From a virus (taxonomy: Monodnaviria; Loebvirae; Hofneiviricota; Faserviricetes; Tubulavirales; Inoviridae), in the IMG/VR virus record IMGVR_UViG_2565956711_000001: DNA of 12,715 nt. One strand, 5' to 3'. This document shows positions 1 through 12,465 of this stretch, piece by piece. Position 1 is the first letter of the stretch. Each line of letters starts with the position of its first letter. The notes under the pieces are model-generated. The model was not told where the DNA came from, made no database searches, and worked only from the letters and a program-made list of their open reading frames with translations. Both the position numbers and the translations under genes were made by a program.

Positions 1-297
1 TCACCATTCCTCACGCCTTGCCGGTGAATCAAACTCCTTTTCTACAAAATTTGCAGGGTTTGTATAAGTTGAAAGCGGTGCAGAACTGAGCGAAATCTCC
101 ACCCCTAAAATATTTAACACTTTGTATAGACGCTCAAAACTTGCTTTTGAAGGATTTGACTCAAGGCGAGCATAAGTCTGCTGGGTTATACCCAACATGG
201 CAGATAATTCTCTTTGAGTTAATCCTTTTGATTTACGAAAACCAATTAGAAGTGGACGTAACTGGCTAAGAAGTCTAACGGGAAAAATAGTATCCAT
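1..297 (-). CDS. HipB-like XRE-family helix-turn-helix regulator/antitoxin, 98 aa, complete (stop TGA = revcomp of 1-3)
   Basis: The XRE HTH core (GLTQRELSAMLGITQQTYARLESN) and the C-terminal ...EEW resemble E. coli HipB, which ends ...NLEW. The stop overlaps a possible GTG (GTGA) of a downstream gene lying off-window, as in hipBA. The sequence differs from K-12 HipB and the context does not match the K-12 hipBA-dif arrangement. Confidence 0.6.
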   Translation of the reverse strand: MDTIFPVRLLSQLRPLLIGFRKSKGLTQRELSAMLGITQQTYARLESNPSKASFERLYKVLNILGVEISLSSAPLSTYTNPANFVEKEFDSPARREEW

Positions 298-354
298 AAG
301 TAGGTGGCCATGTCGATTACTTCATAATAAATTCACTCCTCGTAAGAAACAGCC

Positions 355-393
355 TGTAAGGTGTCTTATTACTTTACAGCTTACAAGGTGTAA
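355..393. promoter_or_regulatory. Palindrome-rich putative operator/promoter region upstream of the HipB-like gene
   Basis: CTGTAA-N12-TTACAG (355-378) and the perfect palindrome CTTACA-AGG-TGTAAG (379-393) lie directly 5' of the minus-strand gene that starts at 297. XRE regulators are typically autoregulated through such sites. Confidence 0.3.
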
Positions 394-413
394 GGGTGAA
401 CTCGTTGTATTAA

Positions 414-608
414 CTAATACTGCTCAAATTTTAAAGGTTGCATCTCGCGCTGGCTGGGATTATATTTATTAAGGACTAGCATATAGTGGTGTACGCTGTT
501 ATCCTCTTTGTAATGAGGCTTATCAGTGTGTGAAGGGAGAGGGCGGACTCTGCTTTGCCCTCTCTCTTTCATGGACTTATTTAACTTTAAATGTTTTTTA
601 AAAGTCAT
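414..608 (-). CDS. Small basic ORF (64 aa) whose ATG overlaps the stop of the upstream 186-aa gene (ATGA); doubtful
   Basis: The ATGA overlap at 605-608 suggests translational coupling. The ORF contains a strong hairpin (537-564) and has no recognisable motifs. Confidence 0.15.
   Translation of the reverse strand: MTFKKHLKLNKSMKERGQSRVRPLPSHTDKPHYKEDNSVHHYMLVLNKYNPSQREMQPLKFEQY
537..564. terminator. GC-rich hairpin GAGAGGGC-N12-GCCCTCTC, possible bidirectional terminator
   Basis: An 8-bp perfect stem read directly. On the plus strand it is followed by TCTCTTTC. It lies about 40 bp downstream of the 605..1165 gene on the minus strand, where the tail is less U-rich. Confidence 0.3.
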
Positions 609-1165
609 TGCCTTATTGCAATGGTTTTATTAAAAATCCCAATCAATGTGTTTATTTTTTCATTTATCTTAATTTGCTTTTTCTCTTGCTCGAGAGAAAG
701 TTTTCTGAATTCATTTTCCCTGCTCGGCACGGCAATTATCAACTCTTCATAAATCTCCTTTGCTCCTGATACTTTTTCCAACTCGCTGCTGTATTTTTCG
801 ATAAGAGTTCTTATTTGAATATTTACATTTCTGTATTCATGACTGGTAGCACTTAAAACAAGTTGACTGGAATTTTTTTTGGGTGCCTCAATTAACTCTA
901 CGCTTTTCTTTACGACATTGAATTCAGATGTGACTGAGTATACATATTGATACGCGCCTGATTTTCTGACTTTACTCAATAATCCTTTTCTAACTAAACA
1001 CTGAATTTGGTTATAAGCAAAAGCTTTTGCCTTAAAATAACTTTTCGGAAGTGAAAATCGCTCGATAAGAATTTGAGCCACATCGTTACTGGTGAAGTTA
1101 TCTTTAGCAATATAGATTATTGCGGAAAATATGTACGACTCAGCGTTGGATACTCGACTATTCAT
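605..1165 (-). CDS. Hypothetical protein, 186 aa; N-terminal winged-helix DNA-binding fold (BlaI/CopY/PadR-like) plus C-terminal coiled coil; strongly AT-rich gene
   Basis: The motif ...YNQIQCLVRKGLLSKVRKSGAYQYVYSV... resembles the recognition helix and wing (LVKKGLL...EGRAYVY) of BlaI/MecI/CopY-type repressors. The C-terminal 80 aa are K/E-rich heptad-like. GC is about 30 percent against about 47-50 percent for its neighbours. Confidence 0.55.
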   Translation of the reverse strand: MNSRVSNAESYIFSAIIYIAKDNFTSNDVAQILIERFSLPKSYFKAKAFAYNQIQCLVRKGLLSKVRKSGAYQYVYSVTSEFNVVKKSVELIEAPKKNSSQLVLSATSHEYRNVNIQIRTLIEKYSSELEKVSGAKEIYEELIIAVPSRENEFRKLSLEQEKKQIKINEKINTLIGIFNKTIAIRQ

Positions 1166-1187
1166 ATGACTAAAACAAGGCAGTTAA

Positions 1188-1202
1188 CTTAGGATTGCTA
1201 AG
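1188..1202. promoter_or_regulatory. Operator-like palindrome 1, CTTAG-GATTG-CTAAG
   Basis: A perfect 5-bp inverted repeat with a 5-bp spacer, in the divergent intergenic region between the 605..1165 (-) and 1263..1595 (+) genes. Confidence 0.4.
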
Positions 1203-1221
1203 TATACAACAATGGCAGATA

Positions 1222-1236
1222 CTTAGACAATCTAAG
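1222..1236. promoter_or_regulatory. Operator-like palindrome 2, CTTAG-ACAAT-CTAAG
   Basis: A second copy of the same CTTAG-N5-CTAAG motif, 34 bp centre-to-centre from the first. This is a typical tandem-operator layout for a dimeric HTH repressor. Confidence 0.4.
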
Positions 1237-1262
1237 CATTCGAGGCCAATGAAGATGAATCA

Positions 1263-1595
1263 GTGTCTGAAAAAAATCCGATACCAGAAAGACTTAAGGA
1301 AGCGAGAAGCAGGGCGGGTTTATCACAGCGCTCATTGGGCCTCCTTGTTGGGTTTGATCCCGCTTCGGCTAGCAGTCGTATGAATCATTATGAGAAAGGG
1401 CGCCATGTCCCCGATATTGATACGCTTCGACGGATGGCGGCAGAGTTAAACGTGCCGTTGAACTACTTTTTTTGTGATGATCAGACCACAGCTGAACTTG
1501 CATTACTCATATCCCGGATGACAGAGGAAGAGCGAAGTAATCTTATCGAAGCACTCAAAAGGCATCCAGGCGAAAAGCATGCTGACAAAAAATGA
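1263..1595 (+). CDS. XRE/Cro-CI-family HTH transcriptional regulator, 110 aa (GTG start)
   Basis: LKEARSRAGLSQRSLGLLVGF...MNHYEKGRHVPDIDTLRRMAAELNVPLNYFF is a canonical XRE HTH followed by a short C-terminal extension. It is divergent from the wHTH gene, with the twin operators in between. Confidence 0.7.
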   Translation: MSEKNPIPERLKEARSRAGLSQRSLGLLVGFDPASASSRMNHYEKGRHVPDIDTLRRMAAELNVPLNYFFCDDQTTAELALLISRMTEEERSNLIEALKRHPGEKHADKK

Positions 1596-1756
1596 TATTA
1601 CATATAAAGCGACTGAACTTTTTGAAGGTAACGAAAGTGTAGCATTACACTGATGCAATGAACCAAGCAGGACATTACAGTGGGAGACGCCCTCTCAGAT
1701 AACAAACTCAAAAGAGGGAGCCATAAATATATGTTTATCAATACAACCAGCATTCT

Positions 1757-1780
1757 GCCGACAACCGGGAAGCTGTCGGC
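1757..1780. terminator. Hairpin GCCGACA-N10-TGTCGGC, weak candidate terminator downstream of the recombinase operon
   Basis: A 7-bp perfect stem 20 bp beyond the stop of the 1800..2234 gene on the minus strand. The downstream tail is only moderately U-rich. Confidence 0.25.
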
Positions 1781-1799
1781 TAAATCTTCCATGTCAGAA

Positions 1800-2234
1800 T
1801 TATGACGACTTATGTAGTTCCCGAATCATATGGTTGGCCAACAGGCTTTCCACCGGTATAACCGAATTGATTTTTACCGCTTTGACAATTTCTATCAACG
1901 AAAGGGTATTTTGCGCTAATTGGTCTCGCAATTCACTTACTTCAGCCTGCAACTGCTGGTTTCTGGCCAGTAAAGCCTGACGGGTTTTGCGGTTGACGTA
2001 TTGCTGTTTTTCTTTTGGGCGTAGATTCAATGGGCCAAGTTGCTGGTCAACATAGGCAGCAATTAGGCGTTTACGCTCTAGGCTGCTCAGCGTACTTAAA
2101 CCACCGTTAACGATACCTTTTGCCTTGAGCCTAATATGCAGGGCCTTGGCGGAAATAGGGGACTTGTCAAAGCCTTCAACCAGCATCAGTTGTAATTCGT
2201 GCTCAATCAGTGTGTTCAGTTCCTTGCCGCGCAT
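1800..2234 (-). CDS. Small accessory protein (144 aa from ATG 2234..2232; 145 aa if TTG 2237..2235), last gene of the recombinase operon; possible HTH plus coiled coil (TnpC/excisionase-like role?)
   Basis: Its ATG shares the A of the TGA stop of the 788-aa gene (TGATG), indicating translational coupling. The protein has Q/L/E-rich heptads (ARNQQLQAEVSELRDQLAQN) and no catalytic motifs. Confidence 0.6.
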   Translation of the reverse strand: MRGKELNTLIEHELQLMLVEGFDKSPISAKALHIRLKAKGIVNGGLSTLSSLERKRLIAAYVDQQLGPLNLRPKEKQQYVNRKTRQALLARNQQLQAEVSELRDQLAQNTLSLIEIVKAVKINSVIPVESLLANHMIRELHKSS

Positions 2235-4600
2235 CAATCATTCTCCTGCATCAATTGTTGGTATTCAAGTGCAAAAAGCTGGGCCAGTGTACGGACTTTG
2301 CCCTCGGTGATTACTCCACCAGACAACACACTCTCAGCAGCAACCAGTTGTTGAGTCTTGGCACGACGATGCCATTGTGCTTGTATTGCCTCGAGTTGCT
2401 GTAACCGTCGTTCGATGTCGGCCAGTCTGGTCTGGTAATCAGGCTGATGTTGAGTAAGTTGGGTCAACTTCGAATGTGCTTGCTGTAAAGCCTGTTTTTT
2501 GGCAATCAGATTTGGTAGCTCATCTATCCGGCCTGTCAGCGTGAAATGTTCACAAAAGGCAGCACTCTGGCATTTCAGTCGATAAGGACATCCCCAGAGG
2601 TTAACTTCCCGCATACAGGAGCCAAATTTCAGCGGATACAGCACGGCATGTCTTGCCACCATGTCAGAGGCTTGCTCTGGTCCTTCTGCGTCGCGGATTT
2701 CTTCAAAGGCGGCAGCAACATCTTCAAAGAGGCCGTTAGCAAATGACGCCTCGACAAACCTGGCTACATCATCCCGATCGTCAAAAGTATGCAGGTTGGC
2801 TTTGATGGTATTGTCCAAAGTCATGTGTTCCGTGACCGCCAGTTGGCCGGTCCGTTTGACGATATCCAGTGGCGTAGCAATGGAGGACGAAGAGGGCGAG
2901 ACAGTTAGTGCTGTCGAAATCGGCTGCAAGGGCACCAACGAGGCGGCTTTTCGCCGTTCTGCAAGCGCCAGATGTTGATAATGCTGATTCTGCGTGATGT
3001 CCACTCGACCCATCAACATTGCCTGTAAGTGGTCAGAGATATCCGCAATAGCAAGAAAGGTATTGATGTTGTGCCGGGGAATGTGGGTACGCATCCGCGT
3101 CGAGGTGCCATCCTCCTCCAGTAATTGATATTTGCTGAATACTGATCCATCAGGCTCAACGTTGCCTAAGAATTTATTCATAAGTGTGTTAGTGAAGGGT
3201 ATCGGTGTAGCCAGCAAAGCCAGTGTGCGCTTTAATGCCAGCGAACCCTTCTCGTGTAGAAATAGCAGATCCTCGTAGTTAACTTGGTAGCGTTTGCCAT
3301 TTTCCATCCAGGCGTGTGTACAGGGTTCGTTGGCATTCGCCAGACCAAATTCGGTCTTAATGTAATGATTGAGAGCAGTCTTGGAATAATAGATAGATTT
3401 GCTGTTTTTCGGGCCTGGTATTTCTTGAACGGGCAGCACACCTCTTTTGCTAAGGGCTTTGGATGTTTTGTCCCGTTGTCCTGCCCGGCCCCGAAAACTT
3501 GAGGTAGTTTGGGTGATGTACTTCACCACATCGTCCAGTTCGACTCGTTCACCGGGCATGTTGCTGATGGCCTGTGGCAGGTAATCAGCAAAAGATTTTG
3601 CCCGTAGATAGGTAAGATGGCTGCGTATTGGTGCGGTCAACATTTTAACGGTACTGAATATACTCTCGACCAGCGGTACTGCCAGCGGTTCTACCCAATG
3701 CGTTCGCTCCCCAGCACCTTTGACACCAACATAACGGATACCAAGAAAATAATCGGGTAATCCCTTGTCCTGAAATCGTTTGCAGATTGCCGGATCATCA
3801 ATCTGGCGTTTAAACAGGGCATCCTGTCTGAGATTAAACGCTTCAATGGAGCGAAAGCCGGTAATAACCAATAACAACAGGCAATTTAACGCGATTTTCT
3901 CAGCATCACTTTCCACCCGCTGGATTAATGCAACTATGTTCAGAAATCCGCGAATGGTAATCAACGCATCTTCACCATCGGTAGTGGTATCAGACAGCTT
4001 GGCCTGCTGTTTCAGCGCCATGGTTTCCCGGGCTTTGCGGGTCAAGTTGGTTTTGTTGGTATACTTCACATCAGAGTTGTATTGCAGTTTAACCAACGTA
4101 AATGTGAAGTGATTGACCAATTTTTGAAGGCTAACGCACCGCCCTTTATAGTTAGCTGTATTGGGGTCACTAGGAGATGAAACGCTACTGAGAAGATCCA
4201 TCGCTCGTTGAATGACAACTGTGCTCAGGTAAGATGGATGGGTCTGTCCTGTCTCATAAAGCATCGCATGGTACCATCGTTTCAGAATCATCAAAGTTGC
4301 CTTTGCCACCGCTGGCGACATACTCCTATTTCCCTGTCGGTAAACCACTACCAGCATAGCTTTCATGAACTGACTATATTCTTTGTCGATGGGCAGATGT
4401 TCTACAATACCTTTGAATCTGTTCATCTCATCAAAACGTAATGTATTTCTGCCGTTCCCTCGCAACCATCCACTTCCCTGGTTACCACTTACCCAGATAT
4501 GATCATTCCATGTTTGGGCAAAATCAGCAGACAGGTGCTGTTCGAACCATTTTTTTTGCTCTTCAATAAAAGCCTGAAAATGCTCAAAGTGATTTTTCAT
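2234..4600 (-). CDS. Large tyrosine recombinase (788 aa), third gene of a recombinase trio; C-terminal Cys cluster and long coiled-coil tail
   Basis: Catalytic signatures are present: box I Arg (LVITGFRSIEAF), HxxR (HIPRHNINTFLA) and the C-terminal LMGRVDITQNQHYQH with the tyrosine nucleophile. A Cys cluster follows (SCMREVNLWGCPYRLKCQSAAFCEHF), then Q/L-rich coiled coil. An AGGTGA Shine-Dalgarno sits 6 nt upstream of the ATG at 4600. Confidence 0.8.
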   Translation of the reverse strand: MKNHFEHFQAFIEEQKKWFEQHLSADFAQTWNDHIWVSGNQGSGWLRGNGRNTLRFDEMNRFKGIVEHLPIDKEYSQFMKAMLVVVYRQGNRSMSPAVAKATLMILKRWYHAMLYETGQTHPSYLSTVVIQRAMDLLSSVSSPSDPNTANYKGRCVSLQKLVNHFTFTLVKLQYNSDVKYTNKTNLTRKARETMALKQQAKLSDTTTDGEDALITIRGFLNIVALIQRVESDAEKIALNCLLLLVITGFRSIEAFNLRQDALFKRQIDDPAICKRFQDKGLPDYFLGIRYVGVKGAGERTHWVEPLAVPLVESIFSTVKMLTAPIRSHLTYLRAKSFADYLPQAISNMPGERVELDDVVKYITQTTSSFRGRAGQRDKTSKALSKRGVLPVQEIPGPKNSKSIYYSKTALNHYIKTEFGLANANEPCTHAWMENGKRYQVNYEDLLFLHEKGSLALKRTLALLATPIPFTNTLMNKFLGNVEPDGSVFSKYQLLEEDGTSTRMRTHIPRHNINTFLAIADISDHLQAMLMGRVDITQNQHYQHLALAERRKAASLVPLQPISTALTVSPSSSSIATPLDIVKRTGQLAVTEHMTLDNTIKANLHTFDDRDDVARFVEASFANGLFEDVAAAFEEIRDAEGPEQASDMVARHAVLYPLKFGSCMREVNLWGCPYRLKCQSAAFCEHFTLTGRIDELPNLIAKKQALQQAHSKLTQLTQHQPDYQTRLADIERRLQQLEAIQAQWHRRAKTQQLVAAESVLSGGVITEGKVRTLAQLFALEYQQLMQEND

Positions 4601-6149
4601 TGGACTTCACCTGTTCCTGATGAAAACGGCAGCGGGCGATAACAGACTCAATTTCAAACTGTGTGGTTTCATGGATTAAAATGAGCGGATTTCGGGAATT
4701 ACCTACACCGTCTGAAATAGCGATTAGTTCATCGACTTCTTTTTTGACGCATTCAAGTAGAGCCTGATGTTCACCATCCGTAAAAGGGCGATAATACAGA
4801 CAGCCGTAACAAGAACGCACTTCGCTGAAAGGGCATGTACTACTGTTCCTGGAGCAACCACCAATTTTATCATGCAACTCGTCACCAACGAGTCCCACCA
4901 CTGGATGGCCTTTCCAATGTGCTGAGTCGACCAGTTCCCCAGTGAGCATCATAGCCACCATATTTTGCCAAACGGGATTCGACCCAAGCGCTTTAGCACG
5001 GATCAAGGCCAACGCGGGAGTTGCCATAATGTAGTATTTAGCTACGGCAAGAGAGGTGTGCCCCAGTACATGTGCTATCTCTTCAGCGCTAGCACCTTGC
5101 ATCGCCAAAGAGTGCCCAACATTGTGGCGTAAATCAGTGGGTGTAATTGTGGGCAATGCAGCTTCGCCACATGCTACGGCGGCTTGATATTCAGGAGGAC
5201 AGAAATTTAGGATTGCCTGATTAATTGCCTGAGACACATAATGCGGAGCTGAAACGCTGAAATCGAATAGTTTATCTTCGGGGTTTTTCTTATATCTCAC
5301 GGTATAGTTCATAATTAACTCCCCAATTTCTGGGGGGATCGCCAGAAATAACCGCTCTGTCGTCACTCGTCTTTGTTTAGCATATGGTAAAAAAACACTG
5401 TATCGAATCAGACCAGATTCCTGATTTCGTGTATCGATACGAACATCTTTGACCGCCAGCCTAGCGAGTTGTACTGGGCGTGCACCCGTTACATAAGCCA
5501 ACCCAAGGATAGCTGCATTGCGCACTTCGCTGTGACTGAAACTTTTGCCATCGCGTAACAACGAAGCCATTTCAAACAGTCCATTGCAAATCATGTTTTT
5601 TTCAAGAGGGTCAAGAATATTATCGATTTCTTGGTAACCCCCCCAATGTTCGAGATACGGTCGAGGGACGAACTCAAGATCATCGTAATCTTCAAGATTG
5701 AAACCTGGGAATGTTTCAGCACAAAGTATTTTTAATCCGAATAACACGGAATAAAAAGTAGCATTATCAATATCCTCTTTTTCGATAAATAATCGGAGCG
5801 TACTAAGCGAAAACCCACCATGTTCTCGACAATATGAAATGATATTCCTCCAATCAAGGTGCAACGCTGGAAGTTTGGTTGGAAATCTCGTCGATGCATA
5901 TTTGAAACAGATATACTTGTTTAATTTATTTGAGATATAATCTTGATTGAAAACAAGATATCGCCGACTGCCTGAATAATCGAAAGTCCATTTATTTCCT
6001 TTGTTAACAATATATTTATCATCAAACTCCATTGCCGTTTTTAGATAAATTCGATCAGGAATATCGAGTTCAAAGATAGCCTTAGCTAAATCAGGAGGGT
6101 AAACTGAGTTCCCTTCGTCAGATTTTAATGCATTATCAAATGATGTCAT
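4584..6149 (-). CDS. Tyrosine recombinase (521 aa), second gene of the trio, with C-terminal Cys-rich extension
   Basis: VTGARPVQL (box I Arg), DLRHNVGHSLA (LRH motif) and VLGHTSLAVAKYYI (LGH...Y) are XerC-like catalytic motifs. The motif CSRNSSTCPFSEVRSCYGC follows the catalytic Tyr. The gene overlaps both neighbours (14 and 17 nt). Confidence 0.8.
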   Translation of the reverse strand: MTSFDNALKSDEGNSVYPPDLAKAIFELDIPDRIYLKTAMEFDDKYIVNKGNKWTFDYSGSRRYLVFNQDYISNKLNKYICFKYASTRFPTKLPALHLDWRNIISYCREHGGFSLSTLRLFIEKEDIDNATFYSVLFGLKILCAETFPGFNLEDYDDLEFVPRPYLEHWGGYQEIDNILDPLEKNMICNGLFEMASLLRDGKSFSHSEVRNAAILGLAYVTGARPVQLARLAVKDVRIDTRNQESGLIRYSVFLPYAKQRRVTTERLFLAIPPEIGELIMNYTVRYKKNPEDKLFDFSVSAPHYVSQAINQAILNFCPPEYQAAVACGEAALPTITPTDLRHNVGHSLAMQGASAEEIAHVLGHTSLAVAKYYIMATPALALIRAKALGSNPVWQNMVAMMLTGELVDSAHWKGHPVVGLVGDELHDKIGGCSRNSSTCPFSEVRSCYGCLYYRPFTDGEHQALLECVKKEVDELIAISDGVGNSRNPLILIHETTQFEIESVIARCRFHQEQVKSNEKSL

Positions 6150-7530
6150 CGTTATATCTATCCATTATAGTATCTAACGTATTATGTAGCGCTGCATTGT
6201 CTTGAATAATTCGTTGGACATTGGCAGCATTAGCCTGCTCAGACAGGAAACGTTTTGCATATAGATCAGGCATTTGACTTGTCGGACTCCATCCCCCCAT
6301 CAGTCGTAGTTCATCTTTAGCTTCTTCCATTATCCCTGAGAGGGAAGGGACTTCAGCAATAAAGTGTGTTTTATTTTGCTGGCTTTTCAAATATTTTAAA
6401 TGCCATATTTTTTGCAATGTCAAAAAGGCCCAAGTATGTCGGGTTGTATGCGGAGTCAATCGTTGCAACGAGTCAGAGTACAACGGTGATTTGTACTCTG
6501 GATATTGGTTAGTGAAGACCTGATCTATTTTCGAAAAAATAGAATGAACTGATGTGTAGGACAAAGGCTTCGCTGACTGTTGACTCGATGTAAAGATGAA
6601 ATCGTGTTTATCAGTTTTTGGTCGAAGCTTTGCTATATAAATGCTTAAAAAAATATAATCCTGCTTATCGAGCTCCAACACACGATTAGCCCATGCATTT
6701 TTGAGAGATGGCGCATTCTTTCTTGGTTCGTATGCCTCGTCGACAGTTGTCACAATCAAACTAAACTTATCACCTTTTAAATTAGGTTTAATTGAGCTGC
6801 ACTCTAACAACAATAGCTCACCTGTTCGTAAACCATAATTTAACAACAGACGAATAATCAAAAAATTGCGGAACTGAAGATGCCCGGAAGGGAAAGGATT
6901 TAGCGGGTTATGCTTTTGGGCAGAAGAGGGGGTTATTATTCCATACAGGCTGAGCACCATTGCCCCAGACAAACTCTGAAATCCTTGGCTGCTGTGACTA
7001 TGTTGCGAAAATTTGTTTGATGTAAGCGTTCGATAATTCTCCCGGCAAAGCTGTAAACGGGTGTGTAAACGCGAAGCCAAAAGTGATAATGCTTTGGGAG
7101 AGTCATCCCGGTATGCAGGTGATATGTAGGTGTTAATCAAAAAAGAAATGAAATGGATCACAGCACGAACTCTAACTGTATGAGTTAAGCTATTGGCTTT
7201 TGTGACTCTCGTTAAAGACAACACATTTGACTGGACGTTGTGGCCATTTTCTAGATACATCCAAAATGCGGGCATTTCACCGACAGCAATGTCTGGATTG
7301 TGGTCAGATGAATAGAAGCTGTAGCAAAACGAGACACCATACTTTTGCCTCCAGAATTCGTAAAAAAACTTCACAGATTGAAGTGAAGCTGACTGTGTGG
7401 ACAATGAGCGGAAAGCCAAATGGTCAATATGGTACCTAAGGGGATACAGCAACGGCAGAGAGGTTTCCAAGTCCATCAGGATCCATCGCCTTTTACGGCC
7501 TGAGATAACCAACTGCTTTAGTGAATACAC
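6136..7530 (-). CDS. Tyrosine recombinase (464 aa, GTG start), first gene of the trio (TnpA/RitA-like position)
   Basis: NYGLRTGELLLLE (box I), TPHTTRHTWA (HxxR) and LMGGWSPTSQMPDLYAKRF (Trp in place of the second His, as in Cre, then Tyr). A GAGG Shine-Dalgarno sits 8 nt upstream of GTG 7530..7528, and a GATAAT -10-like hexamer lies at 7546..7551 (minus). Confidence 0.8.
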   Translation of the reverse strand: MYSLKQLVISGRKRRWILMDLETSLPLLYPLRYHIDHLAFRSLSTQSASLQSVKFFYEFWRQKYGVSFCYSFYSSDHNPDIAVGEMPAFWMYLENGHNVQSNVLSLTRVTKANSLTHTVRVRAVIHFISFLINTYISPAYRDDSPKALSLLASRLHTRLQLCRENYRTLTSNKFSQHSHSSQGFQSLSGAMVLSLYGIITPSSAQKHNPLNPFPSGHLQFRNFLIIRLLLNYGLRTGELLLLECSSIKPNLKGDKFSLIVTTVDEAYEPRKNAPSLKNAWANRVLELDKQDYIFLSIYIAKLRPKTDKHDFIFTSSQQSAKPLSYTSVHSIFSKIDQVFTNQYPEYKSPLYSDSLQRLTPHTTRHTWAFLTLQKIWHLKYLKSQQNKTHFIAEVPSLSGIMEEAKDELRLMGGWSPTSQMPDLYAKRFLSEQANAANVQRIIQDNAALHNTLDTIMDRYNDDII

Positions 7531-7673
7531 AATATTTACCTCAAAATTATCATGGATATGAAGAGAATGTACTCTGTACCTAATGCAAGAAACGAGAGGG
7601 AGATCAGAAATCCTAACGTATTGATTTATCAGTTAGTGGGAGTGTCATATGAACTTATTTACCACAGTAGGTG

Positions 7674-7701
7674 ATTTAACATAATATACATTATGCGCAC
7701 C
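7674..7701 (-). other. dif: dif chromosome dimer resolution site (XerC/XerD), perfect 28-mer
   Basis: The plus strand reads ATTTAACATAATATACATTATGCGCACC. Its reverse complement, GGTGCGCATAA-TGTATA-TTATGTTAAAT, is identical to the E. coli/enterobacterial dif consensus. Confidence 0.9.
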
Positions 7702-7986
7702 AGTGCGCAGATACGCCAGAAATCAGCCTGTAACCATCACCACGGCATTAAACGGTCATCGCTGTTACGTTCTTTCGTCTTCGACCGTCAGCCATCCGTA
7801 TCGCTTCTGAATACGCCGGAATGAAAAACAGGCTTTGCAGTGCCGGGAATTATTATGGCTGACGCCATAATGCTGTTTATGTCCTCGCTTCGCTGCGGGG
7901 CTTCCGGCGCTAAGCGCCTCCCATGCCTGACGGCATAAAAACCGGATATGCCGCCACGTCACCGCATGATACGTCCGTCGCCACCA

Positions 7987-9249
7987 TCACCGCGCGCGCT
8001 CCTCGTGGGAACTCGGTGCGTGCGCGGCGCTGGCGCGCCTGACTTTTTTCGCCTGTAACACGACAAGAATATCCGTCTTGTTCTTCTCGTCAGATGAACT
8101 GGTGAGCCAGCCTTTTGGCAGAAAGCTGAACCCGGTATCGGCGTTTGTGACCTTCGATTCAGCCAGGCCACCCAGCAGAATAATATCCCCGTCAGCCGCT
8201 GATACCTCCGTATTCACCTCGCGCTTAATCAGCGTCGGGCTGTTATTCACGCCCGTATCCGTCTTCGCAAAGCTGGAAAGCTGCTGCTTAATCACAAGGT
8301 CAATATTGTCAGTCCGGATTTGCGGTTTCACGTCGAGGATAACGCCACTAGAGCGATATTCAATCGACTGGATCGGCCTGTTGTCGGCGTAGCTCACCTG
8401 ACCCAGCACCGGAACCTCGTTACCGACTGAAAACGTGGCAGATGCGCCATCCTTCACCCTGAGCCGCGGGGAACTGACGACATGAAAACGACTGTCCGTC
8501 CTGAAAAGCTCATACAGCGCATCAAGAGAGCCTGTATTCACCCGGATAAAGTTATCAAAACCGCCAGACGCGCCAATCTGTATATTCAGCTTGCCGGAAA
8601 GCAGCTTCGCCGCCAGTGCCAGCCCGGAACCGTTACGCTCACTGGTCTGAACCTCAAACACGTAAGCTGCGACAATCACTTCTTCAGAGGCAGTATCAAT
8701 CAGCGGTAAAAGCGTCTGCAACCGCTTAATCTCTGACTTCCGGCCATAATAAACCAGCACATCCCCGGTACGGTTCATAAAGTCCGATGCCGTACCCGCT
8801 ACGGCCGCTTCTGGCGATATCTGCCCGGACGGTAACGAGTTACGCTGACTGTTAAACTGCCCGGTAAACTGTCCGGCCAGAATGTCAGACAGATACGCCA
8901 CGGAACGGAAGCGAGGCCGATAAACAAAGGTCTCCTGCGGCGGCACATACACTTTCGGCGTGAACGGCGCCACGTAGTCAATGCCCTGTTTGTTATAAAT
9001 CGCAATGTTCATATTGCCGAGATAGCGCTTAATAAATGCCCGTTCATCGATATCCGGCGTGATACGGAACGTCACCACCTTATCGGATTTGGCAAGCTCC
9101 GGGTCAAGCATAAACGGCTTATCGAACACCTGAACGTAAATCATGTTCAGCGCCTGCGGCAGCGGAACAGCGTTGAGCTCCAGACTGACGCCCTTCGCCA
9201 TAACCAGCCCCGGAACCAGTAAAAAAAGTAAACCTGTTATCAGCTTCAT
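7987..9249 (-). CDS. Filamentous-phage pIV-like outer-membrane secretin (420 aa)
   Basis: An N-terminal signal peptide (MKLITGLLFLLVPGLVMA) and the C-terminal secretin motif ...LLGGLAESKVTNADTGFSFLPKGWL...ILVVLQAKKV parallel M13 pIV (...LLLGGLTDYKN...GVPFLSKIPLIG...LYVLVKATIV). The size matches pIV (426 aa). The start is coupled to pI by an ATGA overlap. Confidence 0.85.
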   Translation of the reverse strand: MKLITGLLFLLVPGLVMAKGVSLELNAVPLPQALNMIYVQVFDKPFMLDPELAKSDKVVTFRITPDIDERAFIKRYLGNMNIAIYNKQGIDYVAPFTPKVYVPPQETFVYRPRFRSVAYLSDILAGQFTGQFNSQRNSLPSGQISPEAAVAGTASDFMNRTGDVLVYYGRKSEIKRLQTLLPLIDTASEEVIVAAYVFEVQTSERNGSGLALAAKLLSGKLNIQIGASGGFDNFIRVNTGSLDALYELFRTDSRFHVVSSPRLRVKDGASATFSVGNEVPVLGQVSYADNRPIQSIEYRSSGVILDVKPQIRTDNIDLVIKQQLSSFAKTDTGVNNSPTLIKREVNTEVSAADGDIILLGGLAESKVTNADTGFSFLPKGWLTSSSDEKNKTDILVVLQAKKVRRASAAHAPSSHEERAR

Positions 9250-10280
9250 CGTATCGCCCCTGAATAAACCGTCACCGTTTCGCCGTCGATTTCACCCGTC
9301 ATCATCATGCCGTCAAAGCTGAACTGCGAAGCCGGCTCTATACGCAATCTGCCTGACGTGTCTGCAACAACAACCCATGCCTGACCATCGCGTTTAAGCC
9401 GTCCGGCAAGTCGCCATTTGTCCGACACAACGGGCTTAGCTGGCGCGGCAGGTACAAAAGACGCTGAATTATTTGCGGCGGGTAAATCTTTAGTCTGCTG
9501 TTCAGGCTCTGAATTACCGTTTGACGTGAAAAACCAGAACAGATAAAAAATGGCAATTACCGCCAGAATCAGTAACCCGACAGCTTTAAACCACAACATT
9601 TTAGAACTGAAAATATTCTGACGTTTATCGGTGACAAGTTCCCTTCCCTGCCCGTTCTCATGGGATTTATATAGGGGGAATATCGCCTTGTCATATTTAT
9701 TCTGATAACTGTTCGTCAGATTCGACTTAAACAGTTTGATACCCGTAAATACGTCCACACGGTAGCGGTTATGCAGACCCAGCGCCACATGCTTACTCAT
9801 GCGATACGTTGTTTCCACCCGGTCTTTAATGAATCGCGGAAGGTTGGCAACAGACTGATTCATAACCACTAAATCACAGGTTACGCCCGTTTTTTCATCG
9901 GCAAAATGGCGATGTTCTGCAATGAAAGAGCGATGATTTGCAGGAATCCCTTTATCGTTCTCCCATATGCGCCATGCTTCATCAATACAGATTAAATCCC
10001 CCGGACGGCAGAACGTATCATCCGCAATGCCTGAATCCGTTTTGTAGGGAAAGAAATTATCGTTCTGAACGTCTTCATTCTGAACAAGTAAAATTTCACC
10101 AAGTGATTCCCTGTCTGCCTTTTTAATATCAACGCAGTAATCATAAATACTTTGCGTGGCAAGGCCGTAAATATTACTGACAATGCGACGCCCAGCGATA
10201 CAGGCGGGAATAATGACGCTTGCCACCACTTCGTAAGATTTACCGCTTCCGGGAATGCCCACATACGCAGAAATAGCCAT
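9246..10280 (-). CDS. Filamentous-phage pI / Zot-family assembly ATPase (344 aa)
   Basis: An N-terminal Walker A (GIPGSGKS), a single mid-protein transmembrane segment (AVGLLILAVIAIFYLFWFF), and a position between the gVI and gIV homologues. Confidence 0.85.
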   Translation of the reverse strand: MAISAYVGIPGSGKSYEVVASVIIPACIAGRRIVSNIYGLATQSIYDYCVDIKKADRESLGEILLVQNEDVQNDNFFPYKTDSGIADDTFCRPGDLICIDEAWRIWENDKGIPANHRSFIAEHRHFADEKTGVTCDLVVMNQSVANLPRFIKDRVETTYRMSKHVALGLHNRYRVDVFTGIKLFKSNLTNSYQNKYDKAIFPLYKSHENGQGRELVTDKRQNIFSSKMLWFKAVGLLILAVIAIFYLFWFFTSNGNSEPEQQTKDLPAANNSASFVPAAPAKPVVSDKWRLAGRLKRDGQAWVVVADTSGRLRIEPASQFSFDGMMMTGEIDGETVTVYSGAIR

Positions 10281-10283
10281 AAA

Positions 10284-10571
10284 TTAACCAATCAAAGGAA
10301 TGCGACGAATAATAAAGCGCGTTAACAATGCTGAAAACATCAGTTTAATCCCTTCCGTGACCATAAACAGATTCACGAAATACCATACGCTATCAGGTAG
10401 TGAGGAAAACAACCCGGCAATATCAACAGATTTTGGCAACAGTGACGCCAGAACCGGAACAAACGCCTGTACGACAAAGTACAGGCCAAAAAACAGAATA
10501 AATTTGACAACCACCGTTCGCAGCACAAAACCCAGCGCCACGTTAAAGGCTGAAACCAGAATACCAAACAT
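10284..10571 (-). CDS. pVI-like minor coat protein (95 aa), hydrophobic
   Basis: A small multi-TM protein located between the pIII-like and pI-like genes, exactly as gVI is in Ff phages. It has no motif of its own beyond hydrophobicity and size. Confidence 0.6.
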   Translation of the reverse strand: MFGILVSAFNVALGFVLRTVVVKFILFFGLYFVVQAFVPVLASLLPKSVDIAGLFSSLPDSVWYFVNLFMVTEGIKLMFSALLTRFIIRRIPLIG

Positions 10572-10581
10572 AACGCCTCCG

Positions 10582-12465
10582 TCACGCAGTCAGAATGATA
10601 CGCAGCGAAATAATGCCCCAGATAAGCAGGAATACCGCTTTCAGAAGTGGCCTGATTTTTTCCAGAAGCTCGCAGTGAGAATCAATGGAATATTTATTGT
10701 CCCAGAGTTCGAACGACCATACCGGACACTGAACATCCTTCGATGAAATACTCAGGTTTTTAATGTCCGGCATTAATTCTGTAATTGGCTTGAGAATTTC
10801 CTCACCTGTAGGCGGTTTTTCAAGTTCCGGCGATTTAATGCCGGGGTCTTCGCCTAAATCAACAGAAGTATCGGTATCTGTGCCTGTACCAGGGTGTACA
10901 CCTGTATCCGTTCCCGCACCGGGTCTGGCATTAACCCACGACTGAGGAACGACAACCGGACTATAAAGCAAGCCCTTATCAAGTTTTACGCCAACAGCAT
11001 TAGCCGCAGCCGTCAGTTCAGCCGCCGTAAAAGGTTTATCAAGCGGTATCCCCTGATATCCTTCCTGAACAACAGTCTGACCTGCAAGGCCATTAATAAG
11101 ATTAACCAGCGCAGCCGGGTTTAACTGTTCCTCCGGCTTGAAATCTATATTATCAATAACCTCGCCATTAATTACCTGAGGTAAATTTGATGTATCAAAT
11201 TCTGTATTAAAAAATATCTGGTCTTTAACATCCTGAACATCATTCGTCGTTTTATACACGGCCTTCTCAGGGTGGCAAATACTTTTCCACTGCGTTTTGG
11301 GATTATCAGCCGTACTGCCCGGCGCAGGTACTTTCTCGCTTTTACATAAATCCCATGAGTTTTCAAGCGTAACCGTTGTTGTTCCAACAGATAAAACCAC
11401 AGTTACAATCGATGAATATCCACCAAAATAAGGATTCGGCTTTTCATACTGAAAGTCTTTAACGGAAACCGAATAAACCTTAAAATTTCTTGGCATCCTG
11501 ATATGTAAGTTATTGTCGTCAGACGCCTCATGATAAGTCACATTGGAATGAGAATAACCATTAATCGACTTATAAAGCGCAATCATTACCGGATTATCAC
11601 TGACAAGTACAGCATCGCCCTTTGCATCCCTGATATCAGTCGAATAAGGATATTTAGTACCCTTAACTGACACACGATATACATCATTCGGTAATGGCTG
11701 GCTTATCGGCGGTGGTGCATCAATATTGTAATAGGTTGGCGCAATCTGAACAGGTTTAACCTGATGATTATAAGGGCTTATCGAGTCCTGAATATTCTTC
11801 GCAGAAAAGCCAGTAGCATCAGAGGGCAAATAAACAGCAACAGGGCTTTTAGGTGAAGGTGCAACAGAAGAAGTAACAGTAGCGCCATTGGACAAATTAA
11901 GTAAATAAGTTCCATCATCCTGTTTTATTCCACTTGTAATATATTCAACAGCTTTTGCGCCCTGCTTTAAAGCAAGGTCAGCAACGGAAATAACACCCGC
12001 AGCCTGCCCCAGCAATCCCCATGTTGTCTGTCCGGCAGCCATCATATTACTGCCAAAACTTGAAATACCCGTGGATATCGAATCGTCAATTGTATGCTTC
12101 GCAAGGCCATAAGCAGCCGCGAAAACTGACGTTCCGGTGCAAAGCTGAGGATTACCCACTTTCTCGCCACACATGCGGATTGAATCAAAAACGTCAGGAC
12201 GTTCGCGTATAACCTCCGCAGCGACAGCGATACCCGCGCCCATACCGAGAGAACTGGCACCCGTTGCGAATACACGCCCCGCAGATTGAGAAACAACCTG
12301 AGCTTCACGGGTTTCAACCATTTGCTGAATTACACGTCCAAATCCGTCTGCTGTTACTGCATCAGCATGTACACCGGATGAAACCAGTAAAGACAATATA
12401 GTAATACCTAACTTTCCAGACCCTGAATGACCGCCCAGGCGCATAAAAGCCCCCATAAAAAACAC
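10582..12465 (-). CDS. pIII-like minor coat / host-adsorption protein (627 aa; true start may be Met8 at 12444)
   Basis: A signal-peptide-like N-terminus and Gly/Thr/Asp-rich flexible linkers (GAGTDTGVHPGTGTDTDTSVDLGEDPG) separate globular domains. A C-terminal membrane anchor (LLKAVFLLIWGIISLRIIL) is typical of pIII. The gene lies between the gVIII and gVI homologues. Confidence 0.7.
   Translation of the reverse strand: MFFMGAFMRLGGHSGSGKLGITILSLLVSSGVHADAVTADGFGRVIQQMVETREAQVVSQSAGRVFATGASSLGMGAGIAVAAEVIRERPDVFDSIRMCGEKVGNPQLCTGTSVFAAAYGLAKHTIDDSISTGISSFGSNMMAAGQTTWGLLGQAAGVISVADLALKQGAKAVEYITSGIKQDDGTYLLNLSNGATVTSSVAPSPKSPVAVYLPSDATGFSAKNIQDSISPYNHQVKPVQIAPTYYNIDAPPPISQPLPNDVYRVSVKGTKYPYSTDIRDAKGDAVLVSDNPVMIALYKSINGYSHSNVTYHEASDDNNLHIRMPRNFKVYSVSVKDFQYEKPNPYFGGYSSIVTVVLSVGTTTVTLENSWDLCKSEKVPAPGSTADNPKTQWKSICHPEKAVYKTTNDVQDVKDQIFFNTEFDTSNLPQVINGEVIDNIDFKPEEQLNPAALVNLINGLAGQTVVQEGYQGIPLDKPFTAAELTAAANAVGVKLDKGLLYSPVVVPQSWVNARPGAGTDTGVHPGTGTDTDTSVDLGEDPGIKSPELEKPPTGEEILKPITELMPDIKNLSISSKDVQCPVWSFELWDNKYSIDSHCELLEKIRPLLKAVFLLIWGIISLRIILTA

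Follow-up and report, generated by a model that had tools for sequence, protein, structure and literature searches.

The 12,715-nt stretch of IMG/VR record IMGVR_UViG_2565956711_000001, a virus record assigned to the family Inoviridae and analysed here over its whole length (hereafter the window), raises a question that lies in its recombinase genes: what may be the role of the cysteine-rich extensions which two of three neighbouring recombinases carry beyond their catalytic domains? The genes concerned are four overlapping open reading frames (ORFs) of 464, 521, 788 and 145 aa on the minus strand, namely ginA, ginB, ginC and ginD, which together form the operon that serves recombination in a GInt (genomic island with three integrases). 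All residue and codon coordinates of the gin genes given below refer to the window and to this strand. Clusters of four cysteines are present in GinB and GinC and absent from GinA, as had been claimed in the initial annotation of the sequence, and the four-cysteine (Cys4) module built around them is a previously unremarked, family-wide feature of a known element type, not a new system. Literature searches yielded no description of such a module, and the words "cysteine" and "zinc" do not occur in the papers on GInts and on SEs (integrative elements of the strand-biased circularizing type), nor in the main tyrosine-recombinase classification paper.

GinB (4584..6149) is a 521-aa tyrosine recombinase with a Pfam Phage_integrase match (E=1e-10, residues 203-376) and the catalytic set R224, K258, R341-H342, H364 and Y373 (codon of Tyr373 at 5031-5033), all of which are invariant in 46 homologues. 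Its cluster, C432-x6-C439-x7-C447-x2-C450, is located at 4800..4856 and spans residues 432-450, that is CSRNSSTCPFSEVRSCYGC. In GinC (2234..4600), a 788-aa protein with the tyrosine-recombinase fold, the four cysteines are arranged as C662-x8-C671-x5-C677-x5-C683 and occupy positions 2552..2617, forming the core of the peptide SCMREVNLWGCPYRLKCQSAAFCEHF (residues 661-686, window 2543-2620). Both peptides were found exactly as originally quoted. The clusters do not, however, stand just after the Tyr motif, as had been stated: that of GinB begins 59 residues after Tyr373 and that of GinC 121 residues after Tyr541, the Tyr assignments being based on the Pfam match, residue invariance and a profile alignment of GinB with GinC. 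When the sequences were shuffled 20000 times, four cysteines fell within 19 residues in 1002 of the shuffled GinB sequences and within 22 residues in 73 of those of GinC. The clustering by itself is thus modestly unusual, and it is conservation that provides the decisive evidence.

The four cluster cysteines are invariant in 35 homologues of GinC (39-88% identity) as well as in the 46 homologues of GinB (34-88% identity), and no other cysteine among the 8 of GinC and the 12 of GinB is invariant in these alignments. The family patterns can be written as GGC-x5/6-C-x7-CY[GS]C-xY[YF]xPF for GinB and as GxC-x8-C-x5-C-x(2-5)-C followed by xxFxLTGR for GinC. An exhaustive profile search with the C-terminal 214 residues of GinC returned just 76 representatives among 1.84 billion. 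In all full-length matches the module is found at or near the C-terminus of a protein of 690-860 aa, the weakest match, a 1678-aa repeat protein (E = 4.5e-4), being the only exception. The alignment of 37 of the 76 representatives, reaching down to 18% identity with a mean column identity of 28%, contains 21 invariant columns, including C662, C671, C677 and C683 along with R250, K294, H506, R509, R532 and Y541. The cysteine clusters are, in other words, as conserved as the catalytic residues. The corresponding profile search with the GinB module recovered 38 GinB fragments only and zero new families or names.

The same conservation is seen across species. A survey in which each species was represented by a single genome yielded 60 loci, 59 of them from Gammaproteobacteria (Enterobacterales, Moraxellaceae, Aeromonas, Vibrionaceae and Kangiella) and one from a metagenome-assembled genome contig of 'Candidatus Kurthia equi'. 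Among these loci the arrangement C-x8-C-x5-C-x5-C was present in 49/49 intact GinC proteins and C-x5/6-C-x7-C-x2-C in 41/41 intact GinB proteins. Distant GInts at 22-28% identity, namely a Pseudomonas-like locus (L063), a Paraburkholderia plasmid and an E. coli IncF plasmid, keep both motifs, the last GinC spacer being 2 or 3 residues long in the distant elements; the GInt of a Rhizobium plasmid keeps the GinB motif, while its ginC is disrupted. Had the cysteines not been kept among homologues, the proposal of the initial annotation would have lost its ground; they clearly are kept.

To what kind of structure the cysteines belong was approached through AlphaFold2 (AF2) models of the full-length proteins, the mean predicted local distance difference test (pLDDT) of which was 79.9 for GinB and 77.1 for GinC. 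In the GinB model the cluster is a loop (pLDDT 47-64) between strands 430-432 and 453-456, and that of GinC (pLDDT 63-81) is flanked by strands 661-662 and 686-687 and contains a short helix, 672-678. The predicted layout is common to both proteins: the first cysteine ends a strand, the fourth precedes the next strand by 2-3 residues, and a coiled-coil-like helical hairpin follows. The C-terminal hairpin of GinB (residues 461-520, 4590..4769) consists of two helices (461-482 and 488-520) predicted at a pLDDT of about 62-86, whereas the antiparallel, Q/L-rich hairpin of GinC (residues 694-747, 2360..2521) is made of helices 694-714 and 722-747. The coiled coil of about 120 aa that had been attributed to GinC holds as regards its composition, the 102 residues after the cluster containing 16.7% Q and 14.7% L, though neither its length nor its continuity does, this tail being predicted to form a hairpin of ∼55 residues and a separate terminal helix (772-787). 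The sequence of the GinC tail is poorly conserved, with about 80 residues free to vary. The exception is TLxxLFAxE, which in GinC of the window reads TLAQLFALE (residues 771-779, 2264..2290) and follows a low-confidence linker (761-776). This extreme C-terminal motif is nearly invariant: in the 35 homologues L772, F776 and E779 do not change, and conservation reaches at least 90% at T771, L775 and A777. The motif has the look of a peptide with which GinC docks on a partner subunit.

In fold searches the cores of GinB and GinC match Cre, XerA, XerH, XerD, lambda Int and Tn1549 Int (the Foldseek matches of GinB being XerA, Cre, XerH and Tn1549 Int), and in both proteins the modules lie outside the matched part. 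Cre, XerC/D, XerH, lambda Int and Tn1549 Int share the core-binding and catalytic folds and the R-K-H-R-H/W-Y active site with the gin proteins, but they end shortly after the Tyr helix and have neither a Cys4 loop nor a hairpin extension. A PDB sequence search with full-length profiles gave zero matches for GinC and weak ones for GinB, the latter confined to the catalytic region. The modules are covered by no Pfam or PDB family, and the initial view that such extensions are not found in simple Xer or lambda-type integrases stands.

In cytoplasmic bacterial proteins, four invariant cysteines within about 20 residues almost always ligate zinc or an iron-sulfur (Fe-S) cluster. What follows on metal binding, on which metal is bound and on a role in assembly or regulation is inferred: each cluster is probably a structural metal-binding knuckle, most likely for Zn(II), that stiffens a small C-terminal domain, with the hairpin and the tail mediating contacts among GinA, GinB, GinC and GinD. 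Short strands, Cys4 loop and antiparallel two-helix hairpin would then form a similar module appended past the tyrosine-recombinase catalytic domain of GinB and of GinC, in which the four cysteines would bind a single structural metal ion, most likely Zn(II). The metal would lock the small loop into a rigid knuckle, and knuckle and hairpin would make protein-protein, possibly also DNA, contacts. Such contacts may build a hetero-oligomeric GinA/GinB/GinC/GinD synaptic complex and control which of the subunits cleave. It is known that in tyrosine recombinases the segment after the Tyr helix packs onto the neighbouring protomer and regulates half-of-the-sites activity, and the assembly reading fits this arrangement. 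It also fits the published observations that all four gin genes are needed for excision as a circle and for integration (PMC5385486) and that the essential GinD has a predicted C-terminal coiled coil (PMC5385486; PMC10214605). The putative zinc binding and the possible functions in hetero-oligomer assembly or target recognition suggested in the initial annotation are plausible.

Several observations nevertheless weigh against a zinc knuckle with a role in assembly. The confidence of AF2 in the cysteine loops is low (pLDDT 47-69, with residues 443-449 and 668-670 below 50), and the hhalign comparison of the GinB and GinC modules, although it places the four cysteines in register, has a weak score (E = 0.027, probability 1.8%). 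Pfam searches with the module peptides alone at E <= 10 produced no zinc-finger or other significant match, and neither motif shows the pair of CxxC (or CPxC) knuckles with which a classical zinc ribbon, on beta-hairpins, coordinates one Zn, GinB having a single CxxC (C447-x2-C450) and GinC, with spacings of 8, 5 and 5, zero. Moreover, the short GInt of E. coli Sakai keeps only two of the four cysteines in each protein, its GinB ending in a lone CxxC and its GinC having C-x8-C only; the module is therefore dispensable or degenerate in some elements. Either the Sakai element has degenerated or it may represent the module in a minimal form. This GInt (NC_002695.2 3493997-3498544) encodes GinA, GinB, GinC and GinD of 401, 437, 543 and 132 aa, respectively, and is annotated as part of 'prophage Sp17'.

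That AF2 builds no confident compact site would agree with cysteines conserved for a reason other than metal, i.e. disulfides, catalysis or chance. Such an explanation seems very improbable, given that all four positions are invariant at 18-25% identity in two paralogous proteins, a pattern that metal ligands typically show and that rules chance out. Stable disulfides, besides, are rare in cytoplasmic proteins of Proteobacteria.

The absence of two CxxC knuckles bears on the nature of the metal as well. Four invariant cysteines in 19-22 residues per protein, arranged otherwise than in a zinc ribbon, could ligate a [4Fe-4S] or [2Fe-2S] cluster instead of zinc, which would then serve structure or the sensing of DNA or of redox state. 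Many DNA-processing enzymes have compact Cys4 Fe-S loops, with parallels in EndoIII/MutY, AddB, Dna2, Cas4 and primase. A Pro residue after the second cluster cysteine, seen in most gin homologues, points in the same direction, as does the sole Pfam trace obtained for the GinB peptide, LdpA_Fe-S-bd, which with E = 1.2 is far below the threshold and not significant. On the other hand, the last spacer of GinC varies (2, 3 or 5 residues), as is more usual for a Zn site that tolerates such change, and to our knowledge the spacings x6-x7-x2 and x8-x5-x5/x3 fit no established Fe-S signature. An Fe-S cluster is regarded as unlikely.

The GinC spacing also invites comparison with CCCH fingers, which have the pattern C-x8-C-x5-C-x3-H and bind single-stranded RNA. 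The x8-x5 spacing is common to both, and the distant GinC group, with C-x8-C-x5-C-x3-C, has the complete spacing of such a finger; the fourth ligand, however, is Cys and not His, and the Pfam zf-CCCH models gave no match, so that the likeness appears to be only a resemblance, not membership. If the Cys4 knuckle were mainly a nucleic-acid-binding finger for the element ends, the target or a single-stranded or branched intermediate, and not an assembly element, the invariant or near-invariant basic and aromatic residues in and beside the clusters would be readily understood: R674, K676 and R691 in GinC, with the pattern C-P-Y-R-L-K-C-Q, and R445, Y448, Y452 and F456 in GinB. It would also suit the preference of the related SEs for the exchange of one strand (PMC10214605). 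Since DNA recognition is already supplied by the core-binding and catalytic domains of tyrosine recombinases, such a principal function is considered doubtful, and the structural zinc knuckle remains the preferred interpretation.

The identification of the surrounding genes as a ginABCD operon is based on the matching gene organisation and on position-by-position homology to a recognised GInt locus. The products of the GInt operon are a pair of RHRY recombinases, a large protein with the recombinase fold and a small one with a coiled coil (PMC5385486; PMC10214605). The A, B and C proteins of the window match those of the Pseudomonas-like four-gene locus L063 with E = 7e-26, 2e-38 and 2e-25, and the proteins of this locus in turn match ECs_3512/3511/3510/3509 of E. 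coli Sakai with E = 7e-23, 1e-6, 3e-14 and 3e-6; direct matches of the window proteins to the Sakai proteins were obtained at E = 1e-14, 7e-8 and 2e-8. ECs_3510 (ginC) and ECs_3509 (ginD) stand among the GInt orthologues of PMC10214605, supplement 10. Homology to the GInts of the literature was traced through the Sakai ECs_ proteins, not through those of P. stutzeri DSM 4166 or P. syringae 1448A, and the RefSeq accessions of the exact window proteins did not appear in the portion of the published orthologue list that was covered. The RHRY motif of GInt GinA and GinB is present in the window, as indicated by the Pfam matches, by residue invariance in GinB and by the HTTRH...W...Y residues of GinA. 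Four-gene synteny as in the window occurs in about 50 species. With the GInts of Bardaji et al. 2017 (PMC5385486) and Idola et al. 2023 (PMC10214605) the window element further shares the gene order, the joining of overlapping genes in one operon that sits at an end of the island, Proteobacteria as hosts, defence genes in the cargo, a discrete end and varied insertion sites. A difference lies in the length of GinC, which is about 780-860 aa in the window-type subfamily and 543 aa in the Sakai-type GInt. The operon, unrecognised in the initial annotation, is the known ginABCD module, and the proteins themselves are therefore not new. An identity as RIT (recombinase in trio) was rejected, RIT recombinases being 315-410 aa long and without a fourth gene (PMC10214605).

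The remaining genes of the operon lack the cluster. ginA (6136..7530) encodes a 464-aa tyrosine recombinase (Pfam Phage_integrase E=4e-7) with 3 scattered cysteines only; its product, labelled 'site-specific integrase' in identical E. coli DNA, starts in RefSeq later than the ORF, at window position 7476. ginD (1800..2237) codes for a small helical/coiled-coil protein of 145 aa with zero cysteines, and an ORF of 140-195 aa occupies its position in related loci. An NCBIfam scan gave a specific name for none of the four gin products. The start of ginD overlaps the stop of ginC by 4 nt (2234-2237), and overlaps of 17 nt (4584-4600) between ginC and ginB and of 14 nt (6136-6149) between ginB and ginA are likewise found, an arrangement consistent with translational coupling of the subunits.

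GinC deserves separate attention. According to published descriptions, either the first Arg or the catalytic Tyr is missing from it (PMC5385486; PMC10214605), and in the window protein the Pfam phage-integrase domain is detected as a weak match only, at residues 492-545. In the window family, by contrast, R250 and Y541 are invariant and belong to a catalytic-type set, R250 (codon 3851-3853), K294 (3719-3721), H506 and R509 (H506-R509, 3074-3085), R532 (3005-3007) and Y541 (2978-2980), which is preserved throughout the 37 diverse representatives. In the profile alignment R509-H510, G531-R532 and Y541 of GinC fall on R341-H342, G363-H364 and Y373 of GinB. Because the set is invariant, and R509, H510, R532 and Y541 are aligned with the GinB motif, GinC may be an active recombinase. 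If so, this suggests a changed picture of GinC, hitherto seen as a non-catalytic subunit.

The position of the operon within its element was established by comparison of genomes. In a megablast search, 411/5426 complete E. coli genomes gave a match, and the left 7700-7704 bases of the window were found at 99.9-100% identity in many strains, whereas the arrangement that includes the phage part occurs in one complete E. coli genome only (strain G5). At the junctions of five genomes the sequences agree inside window position 7700 and differ completely outside it. Since identity stops at 7700-7704 and the flanks differ, the gin genes mark the end of a mobile element with a discrete border, beyond which the phage genes lie. 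The ginA-proximal terminus is located at 7680..7700 on the minus strand, the element beginning with GTGCGCATAATGTATATTATG in gin orientation; it is the only mapped end, the distal one being beyond the window. GInts are characterised by discrete ends, by site-specific insertion with imperfect direct repeats at the flanks and by an AT-rich 3' end, and for the present element the mapping covered the border at 7700. A view of the trio as part of the adjacent filamentous prophage was rejected, as the element boundary at 7700 lies between them. The inovirus block itself is situated upstream of ginA on the minus strand (7987-12465) and comprises genes for pIII-like (627 aa), pVI-like (95 aa), pI/Zot (344 aa) and pIV secretin (420 aa) proteins. 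Across the junction, at window 7690-7712, host flank and element terminus form a 7-bp inverted repeat, TGCGCAC-TG-GTGCGCA; the flanks of the other four genomes are unrelated to that of the window, and two of them resemble each other.

Downstream of ginD, to the left of window position 1, the cargo in E. coli EC09 (locus 1-11912) includes an ATP-dependent nuclease and a UvrD-like helicase. NACHT, AlbA-domain and SEC-C proteins are encoded beside the gin operon in identical E. coli DNA, and an Avs4 nuclease is encoded on a plasmid GInt (locus L066, 8516-10972). Rich in defence-type genes, this gin-adjacent cargo has the appearance of a defence island.

Are the Cys4 clusters confined to GInts? 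SEs are organised as intA-tfp-intB-srap (PMC10214605) and resemble the window element in that their recombination module also comprises four genes, among them two for large proteins of the recombinase fold and one for a small coiled-coil protein. In the two SEs compared, those of pAQU1 (NC_016983.1 6974-10836, L067) and pBT2436 (NZ_CP039989.1 11117-14883, L068), Tfp and IntB have four-cysteine clusters near their C-termini, with the patterns C-x19/28-C-x5-C-x2-C in Tfp and C-x4/5-C-x3/10-C-x11-C in IntB, and these are conserved between two elements of only about 24% identity. The gene order, which in the window runs from two recombinases through the large fold protein to the small protein, and the cysteine spacings are nevertheless different, and when the window proteins were compared by BLASTP with those of the pAQU1 SE, the best E was 0.16, i.e. 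no similarity. With this gene order and without such similarity, the window element was not assigned to the SEs. The clusters of GinB and GinC and those of the SE proteins suggest a common theme despite the BLAST dissimilarity. In Tn554 (TnpA, TnpB, TnpC), likewise, an ordinary tyrosine recombinase and a large one are accompanied by a small TnpC/GinD-like protein, but this element has two recombinases, not three, and hosts among Firmicutes (PMC10214605).

The Cys4 knuckle with its hairpin might then be a shared hallmark of GinB and GinC of GInts, Tfp and IntB of SEs and perhaps TnpB of Tn554, in which fingers stabilised by metal would hold the DNA, perhaps as an intermediate that is single-stranded or branched, while hairpins together with GinD, Srap or TnpC would pair subunits and set strand and direction. 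This broader proposal is speculative, and we would not consider it likely at present. Large serine integrases, e.g. the Listeria phage A118-type or LI integrase, have a zinc-ribbon domain with an embedded coiled-coil motif, and the module would function in the manner of this zinc-ribbon/coiled-coil unit. Should the proposal be true, it would mean convergent directionality control in tyrosine and serine recombinases.

Altogether, the finding refines a known system rather than revealing a new one. The eight cysteines and two hairpins offer targets for mutation in the existing excision and integration assays, and the compact modules suit purification for metal analysis, DNA-binding and pairwise GinD interaction tests. 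GInts and the related SEs move defence, virulence and antibiotic-resistance genes, and the module may bear both on the need of these elements for three recombinase-like proteins and a small helper and on the asymmetric strand exchange that has been shown for SEs and may possibly occur in GInts.

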